From positions 1-63,633 of the forward strand of contig JBFMDM010000001.1 in the NCBI GenBank assembly GCA_040753835.1: DNA of 63,633 bases. Direction: 5' to 3'. This DNA comes from Planctomycetota bacterium. GTDB taxonomy: Bacteria > Planctomycetota > MHYJ01 > JACQXL01. The stretch's first letter is position 1, and each line of letters opens with the position of its first letter. The notes beneath the pieces are model-generated. The model searched no databases and was not told the DNA's origin. It was given only the letters and a program-made list of their open reading frames with translations. Positions 1 to 63,633 of the stretch are shown one piece after another. Made by a program: the position numbers and the translations under genes.

Positions 1-377
1 TCGTATTCGGGACTTTGCTGACCGGACTGGGCTCGGCTGATGTGCTTTACTTAACAGACATCAGCGCGGATATCCCTTACACTTCCTTTGACCTGTCGGC
101 CTGGATTCCGGCGCAGGCAAAGGCAGTGATTCTGCAACTGGGAATTTTTAACCAGTCATTTGCCAATGGCCGGGCGTTCTTCAGGGTGCGGACTAACACG
201 GACCAGCGCGATGCCCTTGGGGTCGGCGTTGTCCCGGGCGCCAGTTCGCAGGTGGTAAATCAGGGGATTGTGCCGCTAACCAGCGCGAGAAGCATAGAGT
301 ATGCTCTCGAAAGTGTAGGAGGTCCCTGGTCGGCGACCTTGACGCTGTGGGTGACGGTGGTGGGATATATAGTATGA
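1..377 (+). CDS. 3' part of a B-family fibre-like protein gene (5' end off-window); conserved ~120-aa C-terminal domain
   Basis: Frame 3 is open from base 3. VFGTLLTGLGSADVLYLTDISADIPYT...GGPWSATLTLWVTVVGYIV aligns almost residue-for-residue with the C-termini of 27063-27929 and 59465-60439. Confidence 0.8.
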   Translation, partial: VFGTLLTGLGSADVLYLTDISADIPYTSFDLSAWIPAQAKAVILQLGIFNQSFANGRAFFRVRTNTDQRDALGVGVVPGASSQVVNQGIVPLTSARSIEYALESVGGPWSATLTLWVTVVGYIV

Positions 378-3884: not shown

Positions 3885-3972
3885 AATCTGCGAAATCTGT
3901 TTACTCGCAGTTCGCACGAAGTAAGTTACTGCGAGTTATCCCGACGAATGTCGGGAGTAATCTGTGGTTTCC
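3885..3972. repeat. Right arm of the perfect 88-bp inverted repeat
   Basis: Exact reverse complement of 2348-2435. Confidence 0.95.
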
Positions 3973-4056
3973 CGTCCGTGGCGCCGCTTCTGGCGAGCCC
4001 CGCCCTTCGGGGCGTGAGTCCGCCCTTTGGGGTTCCTCCCACTGGAACCCGGTGGG

Positions 4057-15539: not shown

Positions 15540-15685
15540 TATAAAACTCCTCTTAGAGCCATCTTGAGCGCAGCGAATTACTGGCTCTTAGACCCCGCCA
15601 TATAGCGGGGTATTCCTTATAAATATCGTAAGCTGGTTTTGCTGATTTAGCAGATTAAATATGTCGGCTTAATCCGCCTTCTCCG

Positions 15686-27062: not shown

Positions 27063-27929
27063 TTAGACAATGTATCCGACGACAGTGATATAGAGTGTAA
27101 GCGTTCCAACCCATGGCCCACCCACGGACTCCAAAGCATACTCAATCGTCCTCGGACCTGTGCCAACTACCAGCGGAACAATCCCCTGATTAGCCACCTG
27201 TGAATTCGCGCCCGGAATCAAACCCAAGCCGAGCGCATCGCGCTGGTCAGTGTTAGTTCTCACCCTGAAGAACGCCCGGCCTGTGGCAAACGACTGGTTG
27301 AAGATTCCCAGTTGCAGAATCACTGCCTTGGCCTGCGCCGGAATCCAGGGACTCAAATCAAAGACCGTGTAGGGAATATCCGCGCTGATGTCGGTCAGGT
27401 ACAGCGCCTCTACCGAAGGCGTCAGGAACGACATCCGGTCCCCACCGCCCACTCCGGGCGCTAACTTCTCGGCCGTGACTGCTCCATTCTGTATTTCACC
27501 TGTGCCGATGGCATTGTTAGCGATTTTCCCTTGCGTGATTGTATTTGTGGCAATCTTGGCATTGGTCACTGCGCCATCCGCAATCTTGAGCGCTGTTACC
27601 GCGCCGCTGGGCAGTTTATCGCCGGTCACCGCGCCATTGGCAATCTTATCGGCGCTTACCGCGTCGGTTGCCAGTTTGGTGTTGGTCACCGAACCGTCCA
27701 TCAGCGGAATCACCGAGACATCGCCGCCTAATTTGGCCAGTGTAACCGCGCCGTCCGCAATATCCTCGGTCCGGACTTGGCCCGGAGCGATATCCACTGA
27801 CTTGATGGTCTCGTCCTTGATTTTCTCCGAGGTGACTGCTTCGTTGGCAATCTTCTCCTCGGTTACCGCGCCCTCAACGATAGCAGGCGTCGTAACTTTA
27901 CCGTCAAAATATTTTGGTCTATATGTCAT
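27063..27929 (-). CDS. B-family protein, copy B1: ~14 eleven-residue repeats + GGGDR hinge + conserved C-terminal domain
   Basis: SD AAGGGGGTGA lies 5-6 nt before the ATG at 27929 (the track start at 27938 is GTG). Repeats look like GAVT.EKIA./DGAVTNAKIA. The C-terminus matches 1-377 and 59465-59830. Confidence 0.8.
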   Translation of the reverse strand: MTYRPKYFDGKVTTPAIVEGAVTEEKIANEAVTSEKIKDETIKSVDIAPGQVRTEDIADGAVTLAKLGGDVSVIPLMDGSVTNTKLATDAVSADKIANGAVTGDKLPSGAVTALKIADGAVTNAKIATNTITQGKIANNAIGTGEIQNGAVTAEKLAPGVGGGDRMSFLTPSVEALYLTDISADIPYTVFDLSPWIPAQAKAVILQLGIFNQSFATGRAFFRVRTNTDQRDALGLGLIPGANSQVANQGIVPLVVGTGPRTIEYALESVGGPWVGTLTLYITVVGYIV

Positions 27930-27987
27930 ATTTATCACCCCCTTTGTTATTCTGAATAAATGTTATCAAAAGGAGGTCGCCCAGCCC

Positions 27988-28030: not shown

Positions 28031-28837
28031 TTACGGGGTTGTCAGTCCGGTCTGTATCCAGAGATACAGCAAGCCGCCGGCGTCCTGTGCCCAGACACAG
28101 AAGCATTTGTCAGATGCCGGTGTGGTCACAAAGACGTCGCACTTGGCCGGGTCGCGCATACCGTTCAGGAGTTCGGTATTGACGAGGTTCTCCTCCTGAA
28201 GCGCCTCGGGCTTAAAATCCTGGTTGATGACCATCAATCCGCCCTGAATGATTCTCTGCTGAACCGCGGCCTTAAGAGCCACTCTTTGCCTGGACTTGGC
28301 GATGTCGTAAGGCATTCCATCGGCAAAGTCGCCGGATGAAATCCAGCCCTGCGCGCGTTCGTCGCCGACCAGATAAAAGGCCGCAATCGGCGCCACGCCG
28401 CGTCCGCGGATCCTATCACCGGTCAGCCGGAGTGTCTTAGCCATCACCTTTAGCGCCCAGCGGTCCTTGGCATTGTCCACCCGCGCCTTGAAATCCCTGG
28501 CCACCACACCGTCCTTGGTCGCGAAGACGTCATTTATCTTCTCGTTCCATTTGCTGTATGCGGTAACTATGTTCTTGGCGTGAGTCCCTCTGATGCCGGA
28601 GTCCGTACGGTCGCTCTTGGAAATAAAGCCCGGCGGAACATAAGGGCCGTAGCCCTTAGTAGACGGCGTGGCTATATCCTTGATGAATGTTGCATCATCG
28701 GGAATCTTGGCCTGCCTGCGGTCGTTCATTATCTCCGCGGCCCGTTTCAAACCCTCAGCCCAGCGGTCCGGCATATCGCCGGCCGGCTCTGCGCTTTCAG
28801 GCACATAGAGTTTTAACTCAAAATGCTTGGTAAACAT
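28031..28837 (-). CDS. A-family protein, copy A1 (268 aa, soluble, unknown function)
   Basis: SD GGGAGGTG lies 7 nt before the ATG at 28837. It is a paralog of 60644-61438 (shared blocks AEIMNDRR/AETINNRR, LRLTGDRIRGRG/LRFTGSRARGRQ, DPAK...C.VW). Confidence 0.8.
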   Translation of the reverse strand: MFTKHFELKLYVPESAEPAGDMPDRWAEGLKRAAEIMNDRRQAKIPDDATFIKDIATPSTKGYGPYVPPGFISKSDRTDSGIRGTHAKNIVTAYSKWNEKINDVFATKDGVVARDFKARVDNAKDRWALKVMAKTLRLTGDRIRGRGVAPIAAFYLVGDERAQGWISSGDFADGMPYDIAKSRQRVALKAAVQQRIIQGGLMVINQDFKPEALQEENLVNTELLNGMRDPAKCDVFVTTPASDKCFCVWAQDAGGLLYLWIQTGLTTP

Positions 28838-29565
28838 TGTTCTCACCTCCCTTGTCGTTTTGTTAGAGGGTTACGAGGTTGTCCTCCGAACTTGCGCCGG
28901 AGAAGGGCTCAAGAGAAAGGTCGATATCCTGAAGAACTATGACAATCGCCACTCCAGCAACCGCCATAGGGAGTGAATCGCCAGGAGCATCCTGCCTTCT
29001 CTCTCCTCCACCCTCTCATTGCAGGACCGGCGGTATTTTGGGGCGAAAACCAGCAAAATATGCCGAAAAAATTGCCGCAACTCTTTGTTTGGGCAGGAGA
29101 TAAAATATTTGTTGAAAAAAATGCAAAATTCTTCAAGGGGGTGTTCTTGCGGGTTTTAGCGCCCTTTAACCTTAAGAATAATCAGGCAGGGCTATACCTG
29201 TATTCAAGGAGGTACAGATTCTTGGTAAGAGGAGAAGATGTTGTTGATACGATAGGTACGGGGAGTTAACAAGAGAGAAACCGGCTCTTGTTTTAAGAAA
29301 TGTATGCTTTTATTTAGAGAGGTATCGGGGGGCGTTTAAGGGGAAGCAGGTTGCCGATCAAACAGATATGCGCTTTTATTTAAAGGGGAGCGGGCAGTTA
29401 TCCAAAGAAGTATCGGGGGTTGATTAGAGAGATATCTGTTTTTATCCAGAGAAGGTGTGGGGCCTATTTAGGTCGTAGGGGGTATCTACCCGGTAGGGAT
29501 GGGGTATTGGGTAGATTAGCAAGGGGTATTCCCCCAGTCCCCCTGCGGATAAATTGGTTTTAAGA

Positions 29566-29617: not shown

Positions 29618-30604
29618 ATGATAAACAAGATTCTAGAAATCAAGAATTTCAAGTCCATCAAACACCTGAAACTGGATTGCAAGAAGATAAACATCTTCAT
29701 CGGCAAGCCCAATACAGGCAAGTCCAATATTTTGGAAAGCGTGGGATTTTTCTCGCTTCTTCACGGTGCTGACCACTTTAAAAAATGGATTAGGGTTCAA
29801 AATACAACTAATTTGTTTTATGATAATGACCTATCCCAACAAATATCAATAAATATTGATAATTCCAGGGGGACTCTGAAATTTAACAACGGTTCATTTG
29901 ATGGCGAGATAAGAATGCGTATAGGAGACCAAAGACAGAGTTTTATTTTTCATACTTATTATGATCCCCGTCTTCAGTGGCAAAAAGGTTGGAATACTAA
30001 AGCACCGTTTAAATTCTATAAGTTTAACATTCAAGATTCATTTCAGAGTAGTGATGCGAATTTTTTACACCCGCCGGATGGTGATAACCTATTGACTATA
30101 TTATTAACAAGTAAATCATTGAAAAAGGCAGCGGCAGATATATTCAGTGAATATAAGTTAAGAATTGTATTAAAACCACAGGAGCGTCAAATAGAAGTTC
30201 AGAAAGAAGTTGATGATGTTGTGATTTCCTGGCCATATTCGCTCGTCTCAGATACATTACAAAGGATTGTCTTTCATTTAGCGGCTATTGAAACAAACAC
30301 GGATTCGGTGATAATATTAGAAGAGCCGGAATCCCACAGCTTCCCGTATTACACGACATTTCTGGCTGAACGGATTGCCTTAGACAAGACCAACCAGTAT
30401 TTTATTGCTACGCACAACCCGTATTTCCTATTTTCTATTCTGGAAAAAGCACCTAAAGAAGATGTTGGGATATTCATTACCTATTTTGAGGACTACCAGA
30501 CCAAGGTTAGACCAATTAAGGATGAAGAAATGGCCCAGGTTTTTGATTTGGATGATGACATCTTCCTTAATTTGGATAAATTTATAAAATCCGGGAAAGA
30601 ATAA
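29618..30604 (+). CDS. ABC/SMC-like ATPase of the AAA_15/AAA_21 type (AbiLi/AriA/OLD-N-terminal-like)
   Basis: N-terminal ILEIKNFKSIKHLKL, Walker A GKPNTGKSN, signature-like SDTLQRIV, Walker B VIILEEPE and H-loop ATHNP. The region is AT-rich. Confidence 0.8.
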   Translation: MINKILEIKNFKSIKHLKLDCKKINIFIGKPNTGKSNILESVGFFSLLHGADHFKKWIRVQNTTNLFYDNDLSQQISINIDNSRGTLKFNNGSFDGEIRMRIGDQRQSFIFHTYYDPRLQWQKGWNTKAPFKFYKFNIQDSFQSSDANFLHPPDGDNLLTILLTSKSLKKAAADIFSEYKLRIVLKPQERQIEVQKEVDDVVISWPYSLVSDTLQRIVFHLAAIETNTDSVIILEEPESHSFPYYTTFLAERIALDKTNQYFIATHNPYFLFSILEKAPKEDVGIFITYFEDYQTKVRPIKDEEMAQVFDLDDDIFLNLDKFIKSGKE

Positions 30605-30607
30605 ACA

Positions 30608-31102
30608 ATGCGATATGTAGAATGCTACAAGGACGAAACACTGGCAAAAAGATTAGGCATACCAAAACAACAGATTAGACACAGCCCCGGTAAAACCAAA
30701 CTTTGTTATGGGTTAGAAAATACAACAAACTCTAAGGGAATGATAGATGAAGAACCCTGGAGCAGAGGGAACGAGGAAATTCCTTATATAAAGAAACTAA
30801 AAACATCAAACCCACAGGGATGGAATAACTTACAGCACAGCATCAGGGTTTTAGATGACAAGGACAAGCAAAACAAATTAATTGTTTTATGCCCAAATCT
30901 GGAAGGATGGATTTTAGAGGCGGCCAAAGAGGTTAAAATAGACGTTACGAAATCACCGTATGGATTACCCGATGATAAAGACGAATTGCATAAAGTATTA
31001 GGCACTAAGACCAGAAACGAAAACTACGAAAAACTCCTGGACGCAATGCTAAAAGCCAAATCCCCGATGCTTAAAACACTGGAGCAACTCCTAAAAAAGT
31101 AA
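30608..31102 (+). CDS. Small protein, possibly Toprim-like (RloB/DUF4276/DUF4435-like partner of the ATPase)
   Basis: It starts 3 nt after the ATPase stop. An N-terminal acidic strand (YVECYKDE), GMIDEEP, and LIVLCPNLEGWILE resemble the E...DxD...(P.lE.Wl) layout of OLD-type Toprim partners. This was read by eye only. Confidence 0.35.
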   Translation: MRYVECYKDETLAKRLGIPKQQIRHSPGKTKLCYGLENTTNSKGMIDEEPWSRGNEEIPYIKKLKTSNPQGWNNLQHSIRVLDDKDKQNKLIVLCPNLEGWILEAAKEVKIDVTKSPYGLPDDKDELHKVLGTKTRNENYEKLLDAMLKAKSPMLKTLEQLLKK

Positions 31103-31106
31103 ACCG

Positions 31107-31610
31107 ATGGATAAGTTAAGAATCAAGAAAGGATTCCTTAGATTTCCAGTTATTTCACACGGTGCGGAGTTTCTCGTCCAGGGATATTTAATGCGCCGGA
31201 ATATCCTGACCTACAAAGCACCGCCTAATAATGAGGGCTACGATTTAATATGCATTCATCCCGACCCAAGGATAAAAGGCAAACAGGTAAGGATTCAGGT
31301 AAAAAGTCGTTACCAAACTGATTGTGGTTTTTGGTTCCCTGTTAAGGAAAAAACGTTTAGGGGCTTTGACTTCTTAATAGCGGTATTCCTAAATGTGGGA
31401 TATTTTTATAAGAGAGGGGTGTCTTCCGTAAACGGACAACAGATACCAGAGTTTTATACTTTCCCTGTGAGTTTTATTAGGCGACACCACGATAAAAAAT
31501 CATCTTGGCATTTGGTAAATTTAGAAGGCGTCAATATTGAAAAATATAAAAATGAAAGAGGTTTTGAACTAATCGCCAAAGCACTTAATATACCTTATCC
31601 ATCAAGATAA
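31107..31610 (+). CDS. PD-(D/E)XK nuclease-fold protein (Hjc/restriction-endonuclease-like)
   Basis: It starts 4 nt after the previous stop. The motif order is GAEFLVQGYL ... GYDLICI ... VRIQVKSR, which is E ... D ... (E/Q)xK. Confidence 0.5.
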   Translation: MDKLRIKKGFLRFPVISHGAEFLVQGYLMRRNILTYKAPPNNEGYDLICIHPDPRIKGKQVRIQVKSRYQTDCGFWFPVKEKTFRGFDFLIAVFLNVGYFYKRGVSSVNGQQIPEFYTFPVSFIRRHHDKKSSWHLVNLEGVNIEKYKNERGFELIAKALNIPYPSR

Positions 31611-31643
31611 TTATTACACCAATTAGCAATAAGGAGAATGTTT

Positions 31644-32402
31644 ATGCGCAAAGGATTCTTCATCCGCATTGGCACGCGCACCACGAGCCGCAAAAAATCA
31701 GCCATCCAGGCCGCCCTGGAGCGCCGGATGTTAGACCGGCACCTGGACTACGTCATCGCCAAATACCACCCGGCCCTGCTTTATTCCGTCCGGGAAATCG
31801 TCCTGAACCAATACGGCGCGGGCAAGATTATCGGATTTTCGCCCGAGGAGTTCGTGGATAACTGCATCAAGGACGCCTTTAGCCGCATCAGGGAATACGA
31901 CCCGAAATACAAGTTCCGGACCTTCCTGTGCAAGATGATAGTCATCCCGGCCCTGGTAAACCTCCTGCGCGAGGCAAAGAAGGAGCGCACGGCCATAGAG
32001 GCCTATGTGGCCGAGAAGAAAACCATCCAGGATTTGGAGAGCGAATTTGAGACCGCGCTCAGATACGCCCTGACCAAACAACTCTTCTTTGACGCCCTGA
32101 TGCGCTACAAGAACGAAGAGCCGATTCGCTACGAGGTCTTTTGTATGTCCTTCTATGAGAAATTATCCTATCCCAAGATTAAGGACGAACTGGGCAAACT
32201 CTACCCGCATCTGCAGGTGGAATCCAGCCGGTATGTCCGAACGCTCCACGAGCAGGCCATTAAAGGGCTGAAACACTACCTGCGCCAGACCTACCATGGC
32301 CGGAAGTATTTTGACAAAGACCTGATAATGGACGATAAATTCCTCAAACGGCTAAGGGCGGAAACAACCAAGGCGAAGGCAACCACAGATGGACGCAGAT
32401 AA
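31644..32402 (+). CDS. ECF-like sigma-70 family factor
   Basis: Region 2-like CIKDAFSRIREYDPKYKFRTFLCKMIVIPALVNLLRE and region 4-like RYEVFCMSFYEKLSYPKIKDELG...YVRTLHEQAIKGLKHYLRQ. The SD AAGGAGA touches the first ATG (31638), so the second ATG (31644) is preferred. Confidence 0.65.
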   Translation: MRKGFFIRIGTRTTSRKKSAIQAALERRMLDRHLDYVIAKYHPALLYSVREIVLNQYGAGKIIGFSPEEFVDNCIKDAFSRIREYDPKYKFRTFLCKMIVIPALVNLLREAKKERTAIEAYVAEKKTIQDLESEFETALRYALTKQLFFDALMRYKNEEPIRYEVFCMSFYEKLSYPKIKDELGKLYPHLQVESSRYVRTLHEQAIKGLKHYLRQTYHGRKYFDKDLIMDDKFLKRLRAETTKAKATTDGRR

Positions 32403-32783: not shown

Positions 32784-34364
32784 ATGAAGCCATTTAAAAA
32801 GATAGGCCAATACGAGATAATTGACACCCTTTACGCCCGGCCGGATTATGCCTGCTATCTGGCCTGCGGCCCGGATGATAAGAATTATGTCATCAAGGCC
32901 TTTGACCTGGGACTGCTGGAGAACGCCTCGGCTGAACTCAAAGCGGCCCGGCAACTCCAGGAAATCTCACACCCCAACTTAGTCAGAATCATTGAGGTCA
33001 AGCGCGATACCAAACTGAAAATCTACTACTACGTGATGGAATGCTGGGGCGACGACCTGCGCAATACCCTCAAGGAAGTCAAAGCCGACCCCAAATGGAT
33101 TCTTGATATTATCAAACAGGTATTAGCCGCATTGTCCGAATTGCACCAACACAATATGGTGCACCGGGACATCAAGCCGGAGAATATCTTTCTTAAGGGC
33201 AATCAGGTCAAGATAGGCGATTACGGGTTGGTCAAGTCCCAGCGTTATGTGACGCAACTCACCACCATTGCCGGCACGCGCGACTATATGGCGCCCGAAG
33301 TCCTGGGCGGTAAGCCGTATGATTATAGGTGTGATATATATTCTACAGGCGTGGTATTAAAGGAACTGCTGGGTGATGAAACGCATGGAGAGGTTTGTAG
33401 CAAGGCAATGGCAGAGAAGCCAACAGACCGATTCCAGACCGTGGAAGAATTCATCAACGCCCTAACCCACCGCAAAGACGCAAAGACAACAAATTCCTTC
33501 ACTGTAATTGACGGCAAGATAGTCAGAGGTCTAAGGTGTCCTATTCGGCCTAAAGAGAATTCTCTTGGCCAACTCAGTACCCCGGTGGTTAAAAGCCCAA
33601 TATTCCAGAAACTGGATATCCAGCGCTACCCGCCCAAGCCCGAACTGCGCGGACAGGACGACCCGGGCGTTCTGGTCAAGACACTACAAACAAGATTGGA
33701 TGAGATTCTTCGTTCCACTCCCCGAAATAATCGGGACTCCGTTGCGGCTTCGCAGAATGACAAATATCAGAGTGCCTTGCCGGTAGCAGAAGAATGGACT
33801 AAGGCGGTAGAGCAAAGATTCACCAGACAGAATTCCCGTACGGCCGATGCATACGATAAATTAGCCGGCATATATCTGCTATTAGGTAACCACCAAAAAT
33901 CAGAAGAGAATTATAGAATCTCTTCAGAGATTGACCGCCGCCTCTATGGAGAACCCTCCCGTCAGGCCGTAAGTGATTATTATCATCTGGCGCAGATGTT
34001 CGCCCACGCTGGTAATTATTCAAAAGCAAAGGAGTGTTACGGTTTTTCCCTGCGGATGGCCATTAAGAATACTTCTGACTATACAATCATCGCTAATAAT
34101 ATTGCGGTAGTATATTGTTATTTGACGGAATATCAACTGGGCTTAAACTTGCTAAAAGAAGCATTAGTAACAAACGAGAAACAGAACCGGTTCTCCGAGC
34201 CGGTGGTAATCAATCTCTACAATATGGCCTTGACCTATGAGGCGATGGGAAACAAGGGCACAGCCGAGCCGCTCTATAAACAGGCCAAAGATACGCTGGC
34301 CAAACTCCCGCCGGACAAGATAACCCTTTCAGAACAGGACAAACAGCGAATTTCTCACGGATGA
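32784..34364 (+). CDS. Hanks-type Ser/Thr protein kinase with C-terminal TPR repeats
   Basis: YVIKAF (VAIK Lys), HRDIKPENIFL, GDYGL (DFG variant), YMAPEV, and C-terminal TPR-like Y..LA..Y...G.Y..A repeats. Confidence 0.85.
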   Translation: MKPFKKIGQYEIIDTLYARPDYACYLACGPDDKNYVIKAFDLGLLENASAELKAARQLQEISHPNLVRIIEVKRDTKLKIYYYVMECWGDDLRNTLKEVKADPKWILDIIKQVLAALSELHQHNMVHRDIKPENIFLKGNQVKIGDYGLVKSQRYVTQLTTIAGTRDYMAPEVLGGKPYDYRCDIYSTGVVLKELLGDETHGEVCSKAMAEKPTDRFQTVEEFINALTHRKDAKTTNSFTVIDGKIVRGLRCPIRPKENSLGQLSTPVVKSPIFQKLDIQRYPPKPELRGQDDPGVLVKTLQTRLDEILRSTPRNNRDSVAASQNDKYQSALPVAEEWTKAVEQRFTRQNSRTADAYDKLAGIYLLLGNHQKSEENYRISSEIDRRLYGEPSRQAVSDYYHLAQMFAHAGNYSKAKECYGFSLRMAIKNTSDYTIIANNIAVVYCYLTEYQLGLNLLKEALVTNEKQNRFSEPVVINLYNMALTYEAMGNKGTAEPLYKQAKDTLAKLPPDKITLSEQDKQRISHG

Positions 34365-34429: not shown

Positions 34430-35431
34430 ATGAAGTTCGGCGAGTTTGGGATATTTCCGGTCAGCGACGGGTTTTTCCGCTTAGACGGCGGCGCGATGTT
34501 CGGCGTGGTGCCCCGTGTGCTCTGGGAAAAACGCGCTCCCCCGGATGCCAAGAACCGCATCCGGATGGGCCTCTGGTGCCTGCTTATCCAAGCCGCAGGC
34601 AAGAATATCCTCGTTAATACCGGCATCGGCAATAAATACACCCTCCGCTTCAACGAGATTTATGGGATTAAGCATCCGCCCTCGCTCATCTCGTCCCTGG
34701 CCGAACATAATGTCAAGCCAACCGATATTGATATGGTGATTCTGACCCACCTGCATTTTGACCACTGCGGCGGGAATACGGTTTATCAGGACCCGGATGC
34801 CGGGCTGGCTTATCCGCGGTCATCGCCGCTTTTGCCGGCCTTTCCCAATGCCCGGTATATTGTGCAGGAAGCGGAGTGGCAAAGGGCCGTTAATCCCAAC
34901 GAGCGCACCAGGGCCAGTTACATCAGGGAAAACATTATACCTATCAGGGATGCCGGACTGCTGGATTTGATTGAGGGCAATAAGGAACTCCTGCCCCCGC
35001 CCCCGCCGGCTCCGCCTGGCGAGGCGAGCGAAGGCGTCGCCCTTCGGCCCGCTCCGCTCTCGCTGAAGCGAGGCGAGGGCGAACCTCGCCCTGTTGGGCG
35101 GGAGGTTCGCCCTAATGGCGGCGGCGTCTCGGTCCGGGTTACCGGCGGACATACCAGGGGGCACCAGATTGTCTTTATAGAGTCCGGCGGCAAAAAGGCG
35201 GTCTTCTGGAGCGACCTGATTCCCACTACCGCGCACCTTGACCTGCCTTATATTATGAGTTACGACCTTTTTCCCGAAGAGACCTTAGAGGAGAAGAAAC
35301 ATCTGGTGGAGCAGGCCATAAGCGAGAAATGGCTCTGTTTTTGGGAGCACGACCCGGTGGTGAATTGCGGGTATATCCAGCGGAACGAAGAGGGCAGGCC
35401 GGTGGTTCAGCCGATATCTGAAAAACCTTGA
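34430..35431 (+). CDS. MBL-fold metallo-hydrolase with a ~45-aa in-frame hairpin-module insertion
   Basis: THLHFDHCGG and GGHTRGH motifs. An insertion (PPPPAPPGEASEGVALRPAPLSLKRGEGEPRPVGREVRPNGG) lies between conserved blocks. Confidence 0.8.
   Translation: MKFGEFGIFPVSDGFFRLDGGAMFGVVPRVLWEKRAPPDAKNRIRMGLWCLLIQAAGKNILVNTGIGNKYTLRFNEIYGIKHPPSLISSLAEHNVKPTDIDMVILTHLHFDHCGGNTVYQDPDAGLAYPRSSPLLPAFPNARYIVQEAEWQRAVNPNERTRASYIRENIIPIRDAGLLDLIEGNKELLPPPPPAPPGEASEGVALRPAPLSLKRGEGEPRPVGREVRPNGGGVSVRVTGGHTRGHQIVFIESGGKKAVFWSDLIPTTAHLDLPYIMSYDLFPEETLEEKKHLVEQAISEKWLCFWEHDPVVNCGYIQRNEEGRPVVQPISEKP
34990..35130. repeat. Composite in-frame insertion of GC-rich hairpin modules inside the MBL hydrolase gene
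   Basis: Stems such as AGGGCGA-acc-TCGCCCT and GCGAG...CTCGC. The same words occur in the adjacent intergenic region 35480-35590. Confidence 0.7.
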
Positions 35432-35691
35432 CTTTTTATCCGGTTAGGGATATAATAGAATTTAACGAAAAGAATGCCCGCCTGCGTCCCCCTGGGACTA
35501 CGGCGCGGCGTCGCCTTTTGAGGCGAACCTTCCGCCTTAGGCGCCGCCTCTGGCGAGCATCGCCCTTCGGGGCGGGAGGTCTAACTGGCCTCAAAGGAAA
35601 GTCCCGACAAAAACTGTCGGGATAAGATACTGTAACGGACTTTCCCGAAAGCATTCTGGGAATTCCTAACAGTATCTAAAAGGAGATTTAT

Positions 35692-36390
35692 ATGATAAAT
35701 AAGTTATTAGCCGGAGCCGTGGCGGTTCTGACCCTGGCCGGTTGCGCCGGGACACGGGTCTCCTCAACCTATTCGGTTGATACCACGCCGGTAAAGACGT
35801 ACGCGCCGCCGCCGGCCGCCATCAAGGTGAAGACCATCGCGGTCCTGCCTTTCAAGGATAAGACCGCGAACAGCCCGATTAAAGGCGATGTGGGTAGTAT
35901 GGCGGTTGACCAGTTGACCACGTTGTTGGTCAATACCGAGCGGTTTTCGGTGATTGAGCGTGAGCGGCTGGATGCGGTCCTGGCCGAGCAGGGCCTGGCC
36001 GGCAAGGGTATTGTGGATTCGGCTACCGCGGCACAGGTCGGCAAGATTCTGGGCGTTGACCTGATTTTCACCGGCGCGGTTACCAACTGGGAGGTCAAGG
36101 AAACGCGCTCGGCCACCTTTGTTCTGGTGGGCGGCGGGTCTGAAAAAGCCATTGATATTGACCTGGCCCTGGACGGGCGGATTATTGATACGACCACAGG
36201 CCAGATTTATGTCGCCGATTCGGGCGAGATTAAGCGCCAGGAAAAGGTCTCCTCCACGGCTATCTTGAGTTTTTCGCCGGGCGGCTATGTCAAACTGGAC
36301 CAGTCCGTGGCCGGCAAGCAACTGCGTTTGGCTTTGGATAATATGCTTTCCAAAATGGTTCCCAAGGTGGATGCCAAATTCAGCAGGTAG
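35692..36390 (+). CDS. CsgG-family lipoprotein (curli-type secretion channel family), copy 1
   Basis: Lipobox LTLAGC, plus LPFKDKT...MAVDQLTTLLVNTERFSVIERERLDAVLAEQ...KILGVDLIFTGAVTNWE. Confidence 0.75.
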   Translation: MINKLLAGAVAVLTLAGCAGTRVSSTYSVDTTPVKTYAPPPAAIKVKTIAVLPFKDKTANSPIKGDVGSMAVDQLTTLLVNTERFSVIERERLDAVLAEQGLAGKGIVDSATAAQVGKILGVDLIFTGAVTNWEVKETRSATFVLVGGGSEKAIDIDLALDGRIIDTTTGQIYVADSGEIKRQEKVSSTAILSFSPGGYVKLDQSVAGKQLRLALDNMLSKMVPKVDAKFSR

Positions 36391-37721: not shown

Positions 37722-37850
37722 AGACATTCTATAAAGAATCCCGCCCAAAAGGGCGAGTTTCGCTATAGGCGACAAGGAAAATCCCGCCATTTGGCGTGGT
37801 CTAAGTCGCTGTAAGGGCTAAAGCCCAACAGCGGCTAAGAGGAGTTACCG

Positions 37851-59464: not shown

Positions 59465-60439
59465 CTACATTATATAACCGACGACTGTAATGTATAGCGT
59501 CAATGTAGCAGACCATGGACCGCCCACGGACTCCAACGCGTACTCAATCGTCCTCGGTCCTGTTCCCACCACCAGCGGCACTATCCCCTGATTGGCCACC
59601 TGCGAATTCGCGCCCGGAATCAAACCCAAGCCGAGCGCGTCGCGCTGGTCAGTATTAGTCCGGACCCTGAAGAACGCCCGGCCTGTGGCAAATGCCTGGT
59701 TGAACATCCCCAGTTGCAGAATCACGGCCTTGGCCTGCGCCGGAATCCAGGGACTCAAATCAAAGGCCGTATAAGGAATATCCGCGGAGATGCCGGTCAG
59801 GTAAAGCACATCAGCCGAACCCAGTCCGGTGAGTAATGTCCCGAAGGTAAAGCGGTCTCCGCCTCCGATACCAGCCGCCAATTTCTCCTGCGTCACCGCG
59901 CCGTTCTGGATTTTCTCCGTACTGACACTGCCTACTGCCAACTCACTACTGCCTACTGCTCCAGATTGTATTTCGCTGGAGCCAATCGCATTAGCCGCAA
60001 TCTTTGAGGCCGTAACTGCGTTATTCGCTAACTTGGCATTGGTTACGGCTCCATCCACCAAATCCTCTGTTCTGACGCTCTGGTCTGCGACCTTTTCTCT
60101 GGTAATTGCGCCGTTGGCAATCTTCTCTGTGGTTATTGCCCCGGCCACTATCTTGCCTGAGGTAATTGAGCCGTCTGCAATCTTTTCGTTAGTCACGCTG
60201 GCCGATTGCAACTTATCATTGGTTACTGCCTTACTGGCTATTTTTACGGCGCTAACTGAACCGTCTACTAATTCATCAGTTCCGACCACACCATCGGCAA
60301 TCTTGCGCCTGGTTACCACACCGTCCTTGATATGTTTTTCCTCAATAGCGTCATTGGCTATTTTCTCGCCCGTGGCCGATTGCGGGCTTAGGTGTTTTGT
60401 TTTGATTTCGTTGAGTCGGTCGTACAAAGTCCTTGCCAT
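59465..60439 (-). CDS. B-family protein, copy B3: ~16 eleven-residue repeats + GGGDR hinge + conserved C-terminal domain
   Basis: SD AAAGGAG. Repeats look like DGSITSGKIVAGAITTEKIANGAITREKVAD. The C-terminal ~120 aa are near-identical to 1-377 and 27063-27420. Confidence 0.85.
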   Translation of the reverse strand: MARTLYDRLNEIKTKHLSPQSATGEKIANDAIEEKHIKDGVVTRRKIADGVVGTDELVDGSVSAVKIASKAVTNDKLQSASVTNEKIADGSITSGKIVAGAITTEKIANGAITREKVADQSVRTEDLVDGAVTNAKLANNAVTASKIAANAIGSSEIQSGAVGSSELAVGSVSTEKIQNGAVTQEKLAAGIGGGDRFTFGTLLTGLGSADVLYLTGISADIPYTAFDLSPWIPAQAKAVILQLGMFNQAFATGRAFFRVRTNTDQRDALGLGLIPGANSQVANQGIVPLVVGTGPRTIEYALESVGGPWSATLTLYITVVGYIM

Positions 60440-60569
60440 AACACATTACTCCTTTCGCATTCCCGAACTTATGGTCCGGGCATAAATGTAATTTTGTTTG
60501 TTCGTCGTAGTAAAACGCCATATTTTCACACTGGCGGTTTTTTTGGCTTAACGCCTCGCATTGTTTCAT
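60351..60569 (-). CDS. Possible small Cys/His protein between A2 and B3 (overlaps the B3 start out of frame)
   Basis: SD-like GGAAAAAGGA. The N-terminus MKQCEALSQKNRQCENMAFYYDEQTKLHLCPDH has a C..C...C..H spacing. The downstream half overlaps B3 and may not be real. Confidence 0.3.
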   Translation of the reverse strand: MKQCEALSQKNRQCENMAFYYDEQTKLHLCPDHKFGNAKGVMCYGKDFVRPTQRNQNKTPKPAIGHGRENSQ

Positions 60570-60588
60570 AAATTATCCTTTTTCCTCT

Positions 60589-60625
60589 GCCCTAACCCTC
60601 TCCCCCTTAGGGGAGAGGGCAGGGC
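60589..60625 (-). promoter_or_regulatory. Strong stem-loop immediately downstream of A2
   Basis: GCCCT-aa-CCCTCTCCCC-ctta-GGGGAGAGGG-c-AGGGC. Confidence 0.5.
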
Positions 60626-60643
60626 GAGGGGTTAATCTGTGGT

Positions 60644-61438
60644 CTACACCTTCCAGATTTGTGTCTGGAGTTTGAGTTGGCCGTCCTCCACATACCATAC
60701 ACAGTAGGACTTATCCGCTGTAATGGCCGCCACCCAATCCGTTGCCTTGGCTGGGTCTGACATTCTTTCCAACGCATCTTTAATCCTGCCGTTATGCTTT
60801 GTCAGCATCGCCGAATCAAACCCGGATTCGTTGATGATGACGCCGGTCTGAATTAAAAGTTGGGTTAAGGCCGCTCTCAGGGTTGCCCGCAAGCCGTTTG
60901 AGGAGATGTCGTATGGACCGCCATCCAGTACTTGTGAGCCATCGGGCAGCCGCTGGGTTGCCTGGATATCGCCTGTCAGCCAATAGCCCATTACCGAGGC
61001 CACCTGCCTGCCTCTGGCGCGCGAGCCGGTGAAACGCAGTGTCCCACGGGCCGCCTCTTCGTCCCAGTTTGACTGCTTTGCGGTAACCGCATCCTTGAAC
61101 CGCTTGGCATAGACGCCGTCCACCTCCTCAAAGGCGTGGTCCAGGCCGTCGTTATACTTGTCGTATGACCTGAGAATCTTTCCGCGATGCATAGTATAGA
61201 TATCCGCGGCATCACGATCGCCCTGTGTTGAGGTCGGGAAATTAACCCGGTTCTTGAATTTGTCCGCAGCCGGAGTGGCAATAACCTGGCCGAAAGTCCC
61301 GTCGTTGCCTATCCGCTCCTTACGCCGGTTGTTGATGGTCTCGGCGTTGTTAATCAGGCCGCTGACCCGCTTTTCGGACATATCCGAATGTGGCGTAATC
61401 AGTGCCGCCACCGGCACTATAAGTTTTGTGCGTATCAT
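60644..61438 (-). CDS. A-family protein, copy A2 (264 aa, soluble, unknown function)
   Basis: SD AAAGGA; a paralog of 28031-28837. Confidence 0.8.
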   Translation of the reverse strand: MIRTKLIVPVAALITPHSDMSEKRVSGLINNAETINNRRKERIGNDGTFGQVIATPAADKFKNRVNFPTSTQGDRDAADIYTMHRGKILRSYDKYNDGLDHAFEEVDGVYAKRFKDAVTAKQSNWDEEAARGTLRFTGSRARGRQVASVMGYWLTGDIQATQRLPDGSQVLDGGPYDISSNGLRATLRAALTQLLIQTGVIINESGFDSAMLTKHNGRIKDALERMSDPAKATDWVAAITADKSYCVWYVEDGQLKLQTQIWKV

Positions 61439-61628
61439 AGTTTTATCCTTTCTTAGGGACTGTTAGACCGAAGGAAGTTATCCGCCAAAGGCGGATCCGC
61501 CTCCGGAGGACAGTCCCTTAGACCCGCCTCTGGCGGGTATTGTAATCAGCCGGTGGGCTAGCTGCGTCTTGCCCCCCGATGGTAATTCGGGGTGACGCCG
61601 ATAGCCAGCCGCACCGGGCTGGTAAAGT

Positions 61629-61721
61629 TTACTGTTTGGTTTTTTCCTTCAGAATCTCCAGGACAATCTCCACGACCATCCGGATGATTTTCCTCCAGAA
61701 ATCGGAAATCATTTTGGCCAT
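61629..61721 (-). CDS. Possible 30-aa amphipathic peptide upstream of A2
   Basis: Strong SD AAGGAGGG lies 5 nt before the ATG. The peptide is MAKMISDFWRKIIRMVVEIVLEILKEKTKQ. It is not in the ORF track because it is too short. Confidence 0.35.
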   Translation of the reverse strand: MAKMISDFWRKIIRMVVEIVLEILKEKTKQ

Positions 61722-62004
61722 AAGCCCTCCTTTTCTTACTGGCTGTTCGGCCGCGGAAGTTGACCTGCGCTCCCCGAATACTTTCGGAGTGCTCGGAGTC
61801 ACGCTTCGCTTAGTTCCAGCCAGTTATCCGCCAAGGGCGCTCGCCTCGCCAGGCGCCGCCCGAAGGCGAGCCTCGCCAAAGGCGGGAAGCCGGCGGGGCT
61901 TTCAATGAGTGCTTAACCACAAAGGACACTAAGACCGTCCCGAAAGCATTCGGGGTGCGCTTTGTGGTTATATCTTTTGACGATCTGGGCTCAAACAGGC
62001 CATG

Positions 62005-62040
62005 AAAAAACCCCATACTCCGATTGCTCAAAGTATAGGG
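62005..62040 (-). terminator. Rho-independent terminator after the sigma/S24 gene pair
   Basis: On the minus strand: CCCTATACT-ttgagcaatcgg-AGTATGGGG followed by TTTTTT. Confidence 0.6.
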
Positions 62041-62095
62041 TTGTTATTGAATCAACGCCTGTGTGTTTGGATTGTTGCCTTTGCCCAGCCGCCGG

Positions 62096-62830
62096 CTATT
62101 TTTTACCCTGTCTGAATTTAACCCATACCACCGGATACATCCTCCAGATGTTCTTCCTGCTTATTTCCTTGGGCGGATATTCCGGGTTTGTGGAAATCAG
62201 GGTCGCTTTGCCGCCCTGGATTTTCACCAGTTTTACAGCGGCTTCATATTCCTTGTTGATGACCATAGCCAGCGAGCCGGACCTTGCCTCCTTGCGCGGG
62301 TCAATGACCGCATAAGAGCCGTCCGGGATGGTCGGCTCCAAACTGTCGCCCTTGATTTGCACCGCGAATATCTCCTTATAGGGCAGGTCAAAAGGCCGGG
62401 TGATTTTCTCCCAGCCCTCAATGGTCAGCAGGGCATCCGGCTCGCAGGACATCGCCTCGCCGGCCGCGGCCAGCCGCACCACCGGGATTCCGTCGTATTC
62501 CCTGGTCAGGGGATGCGGCACGTCGAATATTTTTATCTCATTGCCGTTTTTGTCGCCTTTGGAAAAGGAGGAGAGGAGTTTTTGTTTTATGCTTTGCTCG
62601 GTCTCGGCAGGAATCTCCTGCCTGGGCCAGGGTGTCTTGGCGGACTCCAGAATTACCAGGCTCATCTCTAATTGTTGTCGCAACTGGTCAGCGGGTGCGT
62701 CGGCCGAGGCGTATTTCTCCACCCATTCATCAACAGAAGGCCTCCGGCCGCTGCGGCACGCATTGTTGAATCGTTCCACAATCCGGCCAATCTTGATGGC
62801 CCTTTCCTTTTCCGTTCCTCGCTCTTTCAT
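62096..62830 (-). CDS. LexA-type S24 autopeptidase-domain protein without a recognisable HTH
   Basis: C-terminal AAGE...IKGDSLEPTIPDG...AVKLVK...LISTNPEYPP carries the Ser/Lys dyad motifs. SD AGAGGAG lies before the ATG at 62830. The N-terminus carries ERFNNACRSGRRPSVDEWVEKY. Confidence 0.75.
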   Translation of the reverse strand: MKERGTEKERAIKIGRIVERFNNACRSGRRPSVDEWVEKYASADAPADQLRQQLEMSLVILESAKTPWPRQEIPAETEQSIKQKLLSSFSKGDKNGNEIKIFDVPHPLTREYDGIPVVRLAAAGEAMSCEPDALLTIEGWEKITRPFDLPYKEIFAVQIKGDSLEPTIPDGSYAVIDPRKEARSGSLAMVINKEYEAAVKLVKIQGGKATLISTNPEYPPKEISRKNIWRMYPVVWVKFRQGKK

Positions 62831-62930
62831 AATCCTCACTCCTCTTGCCGGCTGTTAATCCGTCAGGATCTTACAGCCAGTTATCCCGACAGTTTTTATC
62901 GGGAGCCTCTCTTTTCCTTCCTTATCATAA

Positions 62931-63596
62931 TTATTCCAATTCTCTGCCTGTAGCGGCGTCCAGGCACAGCCGCCGGGCCAAACGGTCTCTTAAGGCCTGT
63001 CGGGCCTGGCTCAGTCGCCAGTAAATCTCGGTCTCGGCAATCCCGCAAAGCCGCGAAATATCCTCTGCCGAACAATTCTGCCAGTAGGCCAGATAAATTA
63101 CCCACGAAGACATCCTCGGCAGTTTGAGAATCTCCTCCTGGATAATCTCCCTGCTCTCCCGGTTGACCAGCCGCTCCAGGATACCGGGCTTCTCGCATTT
63201 TTCAGGAATGGTCTGGCCCAATGAAACCGGATTGTCGTCCTCATCCTGCCCGACCTCCTTGTCAAGCGAGGCGAACGAGAATTTTTGCTGTATGAAAATG
63301 GCCGAATAATGTCCGATGATGCCGTGCGGCGCGCCGAAGCCCAGGTAGGCGCGGCCTAAAAGCGCCTTGACTGACTTGCCCTTGAAATTCCCGATGGCCT
63401 TGATAGCCCTTTGCCAGACCTCGGAGCAGAAATCGGCGACATCGGCCGCTCGGTTCGGCGGAATCAAATGCCTTGCTTCATCAGCCACATATTTCTTATA
63501 TCTCTCATATACATTTATAACAGCGTCATCTTTTTTCTTTGGGTCTTCCTTAATCAGCCGGATTAACTCCGCATCTGAATATTTCTTGTCAGGCAT
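62931..63596 (-). CDS. ECF-like sigma-70 family factor
   Basis: Region 2-like FCSEVWQRAIKAIGNFKG and region 4-like VIYLAYWQNCSAEDISRLCGIAETEIYWRLSQARQALRDRL. It has the same AAGGAG-ATGTTTATG start context as 31638/31644. Confidence 0.65.
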   Translation of the reverse strand: MPDKKYSDAELIRLIKEDPKKKDDAVINVYERYKKYVADEARHLIPPNRAADVADFCSEVWQRAIKAIGNFKGKSVKALLGRAYLGFGAPHGIIGHYSAIFIQQKFSFASLDKEVGQDEDDNPVSLGQTIPEKCEKPGILERLVNRESREIIQEEILKLPRMSSWVIYLAYWQNCSAEDISRLCGIAETEIYWRLSQARQALRDRLARRLCLDAATGRELE

Positions 63597-63633
63597 AAAC
63601 ATCTCCTTGTATAATCGGCGCCATTCGTTTGAA

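Follow-up and report, generated by a model that had tools for sequence, protein, structure and literature searches.

A candidate sigma factor switch with a self-cleaving LexA-type partner ahead of a fibre-type gene cassette in Planctomycetota

We describe a regulator-led string of genes on the minus strand of contig JBFMDM010000001.1, analysed here as a stretch of 63,633 nucleotides (nt; the window) from a metagenome-assembled genome (MAG) of Planctomycetota with locus tags AB1599_. The string opens with a gene for a sigma factor of the extracytoplasmic function (ECF) type, sigma2, followed by a gene for a two-domain protein of the S24 peptidase family, and continues with a cassette encoding a 30-residue peptide (pep30), a protein named A, a small zinc ribbon and a fibre-like protein, B. 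Our preferred reading, to which we give about an even chance, is that the ECF sigma factor is held by this soluble, self-cleaving LexA-type partner, and that the pair switches on a lineage-specific fibre cassette with a structured RNA leader, R1. More tentatively, the S24 protein may represent a new class of soluble anti-sigma factor, in which a RecA-type or similar signal frees the sigma factor directly, no DNA-binding repressor taking part, to drive a Planctomycetota-specific fibre cassette tuned by R1, with A as the major part of the fibre and B as its variable binding component. The domain combination of the partner, protein A and the R1 RNA are new. An initial annotation, made from the sequence alone, had listed the same order of genes, terminator, hairpins and small open reading frames (ORFs), and all of these lie on the minus strand within a few bases of where it placed them:

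62931-63596 (alternative ATG at 63602), minus strand: sigma2, ECF-type sigma factor (Sigma70_r4_2, TIGR02937)
62096-62830, minus strand: S24 protein, two-domain partner of the sigma factor (Peptidase_S24, 66 bits)
62009-62042, minus strand: intrinsic terminator, a 15-pair stem and a T run
61722-62008, minus strand: hairpin-rich spacer (fold and repeats)
61629-61721, minus strand: pep30, ORF of 30 amino acids (aa) with the Shine-Dalgarno sequence AAAAGGAGG
61537-61627, minus strand: R1, structured RNA in the spacer between pep30 and A (covariation)
61439-61536, minus strand: third generic leader module, just 5' of the Shine-Dalgarno sequence of A2 (fold)
60644-61438, minus strand: A2, 264 aa (ORF)
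60584-60631, minus strand: intercistronic hairpin 3' of A2 (fold)
60351-60569, minus strand: Cys/His ORF, 72 aa, overlapping the start of B3 by 89 nt
59465-60439, minus strand: B3, fibre-like (PHROG tail-fibre families)

Further copies of A and B in the window are:

28031-28846 and 27063-27938: A1 and B1, the first module
6-374, plus strand: B2, third B copy, C-terminal end only (~123 residues, 84% identical to the B3 C-domain)

The catalytic half of the partner has every feature expected of a self-cleaving protein. It matches Peptidase_S24 at 66.3 bits against a cutoff of 23.3, with the fold of an S24 catalytic domain, and carries an AAAG cleavage site at residues 121-124 (A121-A122-A123-G124; 62459-62470), a catalytic Ser163 (62342-62344) within a GDSLEP motif, and Lys200 (62231-62233). 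This Ser-Lys dyad and the Ala-Gly site are invariant in an alignment of 12 homologues, and the AAAG, S163 and K200 of the partner align with the VAAG site, the serine and the lysine of LexA. A PDB sequence search aligned residues 87-226 only, i.e. the LexA C-domain, and Foldseek returned the C-domains of LexA, lambda cI and UmuD at a target-normalised TM-score of about 0.7 and a root-mean-square deviation of 2.2-2.6 angstroms, for a low-confidence model.

The N-terminal domain (aa 1-~75; 62606-62830) is modelled by AlphaFold2 (AF2) as a small bundle of three helices, in which a turn links a short helix to a longer one, at a predicted local distance difference test score (pLDDT) of 84-91. It is homologous to the N-terminus of a tetratricopeptide repeat (TPR) protein in a second locus, L006 (hhalign 94%, E 9e-8), and a profile search with it returned only stand-alone proteins of 78-92 aa; all three that we looked up (L021, L022 and L023) lie directly downstream of an ECF sigma gene. 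A 129-aa protein of L025 was considered as a further homologue and dropped, its hhalign value of 22% being weak. The sigma factors of L005, L018, L021 and L022 are 42-57% identical regardless of the C-domain that their partner carries, so that, judged by sequence, the N-domain is a module that accompanies this sigma family. The position directly downstream of an ECF sigma gene is the classic one for an anti-sigma factor, and since the N-domain recurs there, alone or on TPR repeats, we infer that the partner is an anti-sigma-like protein switched by S24 self-cleavage. Pfam anti-sigma families did not match it, and neither an HxxxCxxC motif nor a hydrophobic span was seen in the alignment, which was inspected by eye with no predictor run; the partner looks unlike the class I anti-sigma factors (ASD/ZAS) that have a membrane anchor or this motif.

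The initial annotation had called this protein LexA-type and had thought of stress- or SOS-induced expression. Spelled out, its model is that of a DNA-binding repressor of the LexA/cI kind, which would have a helix-turn-helix (HTH) that goes unrecognised and would, through SOS self-cleavage, derepress the sigma operon or the cassette. The label LexA-type stands for the C-domain, whose LexA-type catalytic domain and cleavage site are complete, but no DNA-binding domain of the HTH or LexA type was detected. Homologues of the partner are labelled HTH or LexA repressors in public annotations, and the helical bundle, with its short helix, turn and longer helix, would suit a repressor. Against this, no HTH or LexA_DNA_bind match was found at the permissive thresholds used in Pfam (E <= 0.1) and NCBIfam (E <= 0.01) or in the PDB sequence search, nothing in LexA or cI matched the first ~105 residues, and the same N-domain stands alone or on a TPR protein, always just downstream of an ECF sigma gene. 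Reading of the intergenic sequences, with no motif search run on them, brought out no palindromic operator that is the same from locus to locus, and the CTGT...ACAG arms in these sequences are spaced 15 to 46 nt apart with covariation of the RNA type. A repressor of this kind is the main rival to our reading, and we consider it unlikely.

Sigma2 itself consists of regions 2 and 4 only and, at 221-223 aa, has about the 200 aa of an ECF sigma factor. Its region 4 is above the cutoff (Sigma70_r4_2, 32.1 bits, E 9e-8), and two further models score just below theirs (Sigma70_r2, 22 bits against 24, E 1.4e-4; TIGR02937, 38.6 bits against 42.9, E 8e-10). The sigma factor in the same position of L017 is 75% identical to it. 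The promoter of sigma2 falls outside the window.

Linkage was followed in 42 loci, compared by tblastn, ORF clustering and Pfam. An ECF sigma gene adjoins the A cassette in eight of about 20 distinct loci, four of which have the sigma gene and the S24 gene as a pair: besides the window, the pair stands ahead of pep30 and A in L017, L005 and L018, with S24 proteins 82%, 49% and 42% identical to that of the window, and the sigma gene alone of the two adjoins the cassette in four further distinct loci. A partner carrying the N-domain lies directly downstream of the ECF sigma gene in the window, L017, L005, L018, L006, L021 and L022, the sigma factor of L006 being a more distant member (26-30% identical) of the family formed by those of L005, L018, L021 and L022. 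The linkage of the regulators to A/B modules, on which the initial annotation had staked its proposal, therefore recurs in other genomes. What stands upstream of A is as follows:

window, L017, L005, L018: ECF sigma and S24 protein
L006/L013/L014/L032: ECF sigma and TPR protein (N-domain/TPR), then A, zinc ribbon and B
L021; L022/L023: ECF sigma and a stand-alone N-domain protein of 82-92 aa
L025: ECF sigma, small protein and proteasome-like/TPR protein
L031: sigma and proteasome-like protein, in divergent orientation
L007, L008, L015/L016/L038: membrane-anchored Trypsin_2 protein and a 78-aa zinc ribbon
L039: Trypsin_2 gene, no zinc-ribbon match
L019, L020: Trypsin_2 called as one ORF with A
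L001 and duplicates: sigma-54 activator
L003, L004, L026, L033, L035: unknown proteins
L009-L012, L040: A alone, in other contexts

The conserved core is thus A, zinc ribbon (where present) and B, often with pep30 ahead, in flanks that differ between loci. In L022 the A homologue lies 2.8 kb downstream of the sigma gene and its stand-alone N-domain protein. Side by side with the cassette, L025 (1749-5442) and L031 (2330-4620, minus strand) have a sigma gene followed by a protein whose N-terminal domain is proteasome-beta-like by a weak Pfam match, fused to 14 TPR repeats in L025; this proteasome-like protein is a third kind of protease-like partner beside the A cassette.

The meaning of this adjacency can be doubted, and it is conceivable that sigma2 and the S24 protein control genes elsewhere while the cassette is separately regulated. 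The two units are separated by the terminator (62009-62042), which the initial annotation had also recognised; its 15-pair stem and T run fold at a free energy (dG) of -20.8 kcal/mol. Behind the S24 genes of L005 and L018 there is likewise an equivalent hairpin with a T run, and in L017 the hairpin is present with a weak T run (TTTCTTAT), so that a strong terminator hairpin lies between the units in 4/4 sigma/S24 loci and the sigma gene and the S24 gene form a unit of their own. The absence of any shared promoter motif among the sequences compared, and the many other upstream genes with which the cassette occurs, also speak for separate regulation. Set against this, sigma gene, partner and cassette are found in this order on one strand in loci whose S24 proteins are 42-82% identical and with three partner architectures, and the order is also found beside an A homologue only about 30% identical to A2; as the flanks are otherwise unrelated, chance is hard to invoke. 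We regard a meaningless adjacency as quite improbable.

Under the preferred reading of a sigma factor held by a self-cleaving partner, sigma2 and its cytoplasmic two-domain partner would make up a first unit, closed by the conserved terminator, with the three-helix N-domain most likely acting as the anti-sigma domain. A signal, be it a RecA filament or another co-protease-like cue, would cause the partner to cut itself at AAAG, whereupon loss or degradation of the N-domain would free the sigma factor. The second unit, running from pep30 through the R1 RNA, A, the hairpin and the zinc ribbon to B, would be the likely target of that sigma factor, and the R1 leader together with the hairpin after A may add a layer of post-transcriptional control, with A probably made in large excess over B. 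The latter would serve as a fibre, docking through its invariant N-terminus on a conserved partner, probably A, and its variable C-terminal domain would bind something outside the fibre.

Several known systems share parts of this arrangement. The C-domain of the partner has the same fold, Ser-Lys dyad and Ala-Gly site in an AAAG context as LexA, lambda cI and UmuD (MEROPS S24), yet unlike LexA and cI the partner has no winged-helix or HTH domain that we could detect, its N-domain accompanies an ECF sigma factor, and, in a further difference from LexA, no SOS box was found. The place of the partner upstream of a fibre-type gene recalls that of the pyocin regulator PrtR and of prophage repressors. 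As in RseA-DegS-RseP and in the self-cleaving RsgI and FecR-type systems, the partner gene lies directly 3' of the sigma gene, and the switch is likely to be proteolysis of the partner; in contrast to these, no transmembrane helix or HxxxCxxC was seen in it (by eye, no predictor run), and self-cleavage would fall to a cytoplasmic S24 domain of the LexA type. Self-cleaving anti-sigma factors are documented in two reports (PMC10328401, PMC12036975). The words S24, LexA and peptidase are absent from the main text of the 2021 ECF reclassification (PMC7826278), and neither an S24-type anti-sigma factor nor LexA-type self-cleavage coupled to an ECF sigma factor was met with in the literature searched. 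In the Type III-E CRISPR system Csx29-Csx30-RpoE (PMC10028731), a protease cleaves a small sigma inhibitor and an ECF-like sigma factor is released; the sigma factor of L006 weakly matches the CAS_III-E sigma model (E 1.5e-5), but our loci have no CRISPR genes, the protease belongs to another family, and cleavage would be in cis.

If the N-domain binds the sigma factor, LexA-type self-cleavage would be coupled to an ECF sigma factor as a new input. The sigma-partner domain occurs alone, on TPR repeats and on S24, which makes these loci a ready-made set in which one sigma family is combined with different sensors. The cassette that follows is uncharacterised, multi-copy and tightly regulated, with named members only in uncultured Planctomycetota. 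The sigma switch, the partner, the cassette and R1 could all be tested in E. coli with cloned parts.

The first gene of the cassette, pep30, encodes an amphipathic micro-protein (MAKMISDFWRKIIRMVVEIVLEILKEKTKQ) that was found by tblastn in 8 sequence-distinct loci at 30-37 aa, with the consensus M-F-K-x-M-S-x-F-W-K-K-V-I-K-A-I-I-E-I-V-L-D-L-L. Its substitutions are distributed 244/142/394 over the three codon positions, and the third position varies most, as is typical of coding sequences. Both small ORFs that the initial annotation had pointed to, pep30 and the possible Cys/His protein, are conserved genes across loci. The latter encodes a CCCH zinc ribbon (C4, C14, C30, H33; C-x9-C-x15-C-x2-H) with a weak zf-C3Hc3H match; it is 54-87% identical over its full length in L004-L008, L015 and L017, occurs in 8 or more loci, also in several metagenome loci including L025 and L039, and is absent from L001, L002 and copy 1 of the module. 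The ORF ends 74-86 nt inside B across loci. The conservation of its tail follows from the N-terminus of B, which is almost invariant also in L001 and L002, where no zinc ribbon is present; a programmed frameshift from the zinc ribbon into B (B lying in frame +1) was considered and rejected, the conserved overlap being accounted for by this invariant N-terminus.

R1, the RNA between pep30 and A, is ~90 nt long and folds into three stacked helices around conserved GUCA and GCAAG stretches. Of its 27 pairs, 20 have compensatory changes, and 92.7% of cells are paired, compared with 73% in shuffles (0/500 reach the observed value) and about 40% when the partners are slid. A covariance model found 10 loci at 59-89 bits and nothing elsewhere in 314 kb; the model was built from nine of the 10 matched sequences, and the evidence for R1 is for that reason the covariation and not the search hits. 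Rfam holds no family for it, the sole match being P9 sRNA at E 0.98 and 19 bits against a gathering score of 43, and we regard R1, on the covariation of its aligned copies, as a well-supported new RNA motif. Its distance to pep30 ranges from 1 to 68 nt and that to the start of A from 9 to 98 nt across loci. The model found no copy 5' of A1 and none in the Trypsin-type or A-only loci searched. As a multi-helix, covariation-supported 5' leader of A with conserved unpaired nucleotides, R1 resembles riboswitch-like or protein-binding leaders; it differs from known leaders in the lack of an Rfam family and in its variable spacing to pep30 and to the start of A.

Protein A is the main protein of the cassette. 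For its family, a word-indexed search gave 32 clusters and a profile search gave 219 representatives (50% identity), and all named members seen belong to Planctomycetota. At least two further paralogues (P0012, P0016) are encoded elsewhere in the MAG, on contigs other than this one; no record of such contigs came from exact look-ups made with A2, P0012 and P0016. A had no match in Pfam, PHROG, NCBIfam or PADLOC. The AF2 model of A2 is confident (pLDDT 87.6, predicted template modelling score 0.69); it is largely built of helices, with a strand at the N-terminus and a hairpin at the C-terminus, and Foldseek found no structural relative for it in PDB or BFVD at E <= 0.001; HK97, encapsulin, gasdermin and known tail proteins were dropped as identities of A on this ground. 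Directly after A2, the spacer 60570-60643, which contains the hairpin 60584-60631, folds at dG -43 kcal/mol and has no U tract, in agreement with the stem-loop initially noted there. Hairpin-forming spacers follow A in 8/8 loci examined (dG -27 to -47 kcal/mol), with unrelated sequences and again no U tract. Such hairpins stabilise the upstream message in other operons, and by analogy their place after A hints that A may be made in excess over B. A decamer, CCACAGATWA, occurs 5 times in the window against 0.2 expected (60633-60642 on the minus strand, 2353, 3958, 5198 and 32767), one copy lying just past the A2 stop; L004 and L007 have similar CCACAGAT strings after the stop of A.

B3 matches phage tail-fibre families (phrog_892, E 1.4e-36; phrog_28766, E 1e-24; and others) and contains fibre repeats. 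The first ~30 residues of B are almost invariant (MARTLYDRLNEIKTKHL in 9 loci), tail-fibre-type repeats come next, and the C-terminal ~130 residues vary, with identities between genomes of 30% or less over most of their length where aligned. Within this genome the C-domains of B1 and B2 are 85% and 84% identical to that of B3; the rest of the B copy at 6-374 and its A partner are off the window. A1 and A2 are 35% identical, and B1 and B3 59%, with nearly identical C-terminal domains. The divergent A1 is paired with a different B N-terminus, so that A1/B1 differ from A2/B3 both in A and in the N-terminus of B, a pattern compatible with docking of the B N-terminus on A.

As B is fibre-like, the view of the initial annotation that A/B is an inducible structural system and not a metabolic pair is reasonable in its structural part, but the origin that it suggested, from a phage, tailocin or gene transfer agent (GTA), finds no support apart from the repeats of B. 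That A/B might be a remnant or a working part of such a particle is suggested by the tail-fibre matches, by the mosaic build of B, whose conserved N-terminal anchor and variable C-terminal head resemble those of phage receptor-binding proteins, and by the presence of several copies of the module in one genome. Yet no capsid, portal, terminase, sheath, tube, baseplate or lysis genes occur within +/-10 kb in any locus, the flanks consist of housekeeping genes that differ from locus to locus, and A has no relative in an IMG/VR scan and no BFVD or PHROG match. Unlike a phage tail fibre, then, B is chromosomal and multi-copy, without virion genes alongside and with a partner, A, that has no viral relative, and we hold a particle of this kind to be very improbable.

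The proteases that adjoin A (S24, Trypsin_2 and proteasome-like) could instead be maturation or activation enzymes acting on A, B or pep30, in the manner of prohead proteases or of effectors activated by proteolysis, the cassette perhaps being a conflict or abortive-infection system and not a fibre. A Trypsin_2 gene stands directly upstream of A in L007, L008, L015/L016/L038 and L039 (Trypsin_2-type regions L007 5311-6353, L008 8778-9545, L015 5814-6933 and L039 4966-5826, the 78-aa zinc ribbon being CxxC...CxxC), Trypsin_2 is called as one ORF with A in P0068, P0074 and P0055, and proteasome-like proteins occur in L025 and L031. Moreover, pep30 resembles a small membrane-active peptide, and restriction-modification and AbiEii genes lie near some loci. 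Pointing the other way, the S24 domains have an invariant internal AAAG site, the mark of self-cleaving ones, and the model of A had no match to bacterial gasdermins or other effectors in PDB. PADLOC returned nothing for sigma2, the S24 protein, pep30, A or the zinc ribbon, and its only match, to B, is PD-Lambda-5_A (E 1.3e-8) in the repeat region. The Trypsin-A linkers look like translated intergenic repeats with an internal Met at the usual start of A, and the fusions are probably read-through gene calls, which we keep as evidence of adjacency only. Pep30 had no match in any Trypsin_2-type locus, and R1 was absent from those on which the covariance model was run (L039 was outside that search). 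We judge a maturation role for these proteases to be improbable.

Several observations weigh against the sigma switch as we propose it. The sigma family of L005 and L018 is only a weak relative of sigma2 and its L017 orthologue, the model of the S24 protein is poor overall (pLDDT 60.7), and in sequence the N-domain resembles none of the known anti-sigma domains; by its modelled shape, the three-helix bundle could still bind DNA. Most A loci lack the sigma/S24 pair and carry other partners, from which it follows that several upstream arrangements exist, this switch being one. Before pep30 or A, no sigma-type promoter was found to be shared, and as the terminator and pep30 lie only about 50 nt apart in L005 and L017, read-through is possible. 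A signal peptide was not seen in A or B (by eye, no predictor run), so that a surface location would lack an explanation, and where homologues of A carry a C-terminal extension, as some do, it has no significant similarity to B. Such extensions had been considered as 'Rosetta stone' evidence for A-B contact and were dropped, as those of P0110 and P0122 had no PHROG match and no significant similarity to B by BLAST or phmmer.

The spacers of the string contain further structure. From the terminator to pep30, 324 nt fold at z = -5.0 relative to 100 shuffles (terminator included), in line with the structured region originally described, and the spacer 61722-62008 holds an inverted repeat at 61914-61970; its length is not conserved, being only about 50 nt in L005 and L017. 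A recurring leader module consists of a GC hairpin, the string ATAAC, ATAAG or TCTAAG, a second stem-loop with UAAC-rich loops, CTAAGAGGAG and the ATG. One copy lies 5' of the S24 gene (62848-62904, minus strand: small GC hairpin, GGGATAAC, second stem-loop, Shine-Dalgarno sequence), a second directly 5' of pep30 (~61735-61845, with GGATAACT at 61822-61829), and the third, at 61439-61536, folds at dG -50 kcal/mol and contains the pairing TAGGGACTGT / ACAGTCCCTTA (inverted repeat I4). This is the inverted repeat previously noted 5' of A2 (61451-61463 / 61510-61522, 13 nt, 92% complementary). At 35692, 37851 and 15539 (35581-35691, plus; 37780-37850, plus; 15540-15610, minus) the module stands before unrelated genes, and it occurs in L001, L003, L005, L006, L009, L011, L012, L015 and L018; Rfam had no match for the leader modules.

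GGATAACT occurs 8 times in the window against 1.7 expected, before the S24 gene, pep30 and A2 and, at a distance, A1. It was rejected as a system-specific promoter because it is part of this leader hairpin, which also stands before unrelated genes. A promoter motif shared by the A copies, which the initial annotation had suggested looking for, was accordingly not obtained from this enriched string, and the GGATAAC hairpin modules turn out to be a genome-wide leader element and no promoter of this system's own. By its sequence contexts, the module is a lineage-wide 5' element, which could serve generally in translation, stability or protein binding. Two copies sit in a 104-nt inverted repeat, one in each arm (2332-2435 / 3885-3988, 96% complementary), around a 1449-nt segment with long ORFs on both strands; this segment may be invertible or mobile.

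A sigma gene near the first module (sigma1, 31638-32402) had been read as the counterpart of sigma2. This link does not survive: sigma1 lies on the opposite strand, 2.8 kb from A1 with an island between, and is a weak ECF match (31.6 bits, the cutoff being 42.9). No similarity between sigma1 and sigma2 could be detected, and the two were rejected as paralogues on this ground. The two sigma genes had also been said to share a peculiar start context encoding MFM. Both genes do have the string AAGGAG(A)ATGTTTATGC, and the alternative upstream ATG of sigma2 at 63602 would yield 'MFM', but this context is a Shine-Dalgarno sequence and a 6-7-nt spacer ahead of the real ATG. It was rejected as a signal, the second ATG being properly spaced from the Shine-Dalgarno sequence and L017 having GGAGGTATTTATG at this place, without the first ATG. 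3' of sigma1 (32784-34364, plus strand) lies a gene which, by eye, encodes a Ser/Thr kinase fused to TPR-like repeats; pairing of ECF sigma factors with kinases is known from Planctomycetes, and because this kinase-TPR gene follows sigma1, the arrangement suggests that sigma1 belongs to a different regulatory pair than sigma2.

The island between A1 and sigma1 (29618-31610, plus strand) contains three genes at a low GC content of 0.41. Its first gene encodes an AbiLi/GajA/OLD-like ATPase (PADLOC E 1e-15; AbiL/Gabija-like), and it is probably a defence island inserted at this place. Further along the plus strand, an ORF at 34430-35431 appears metallo-beta-lactamase-like (by eye, no family search) and has an insert rich in Pro, Gly, Glu and Arg, PPPPPAPPGEASEGVALRPAPLSLKRGEGEPRPVGREVRP, which resembles a translated GC-rich repeat or hairpin element.

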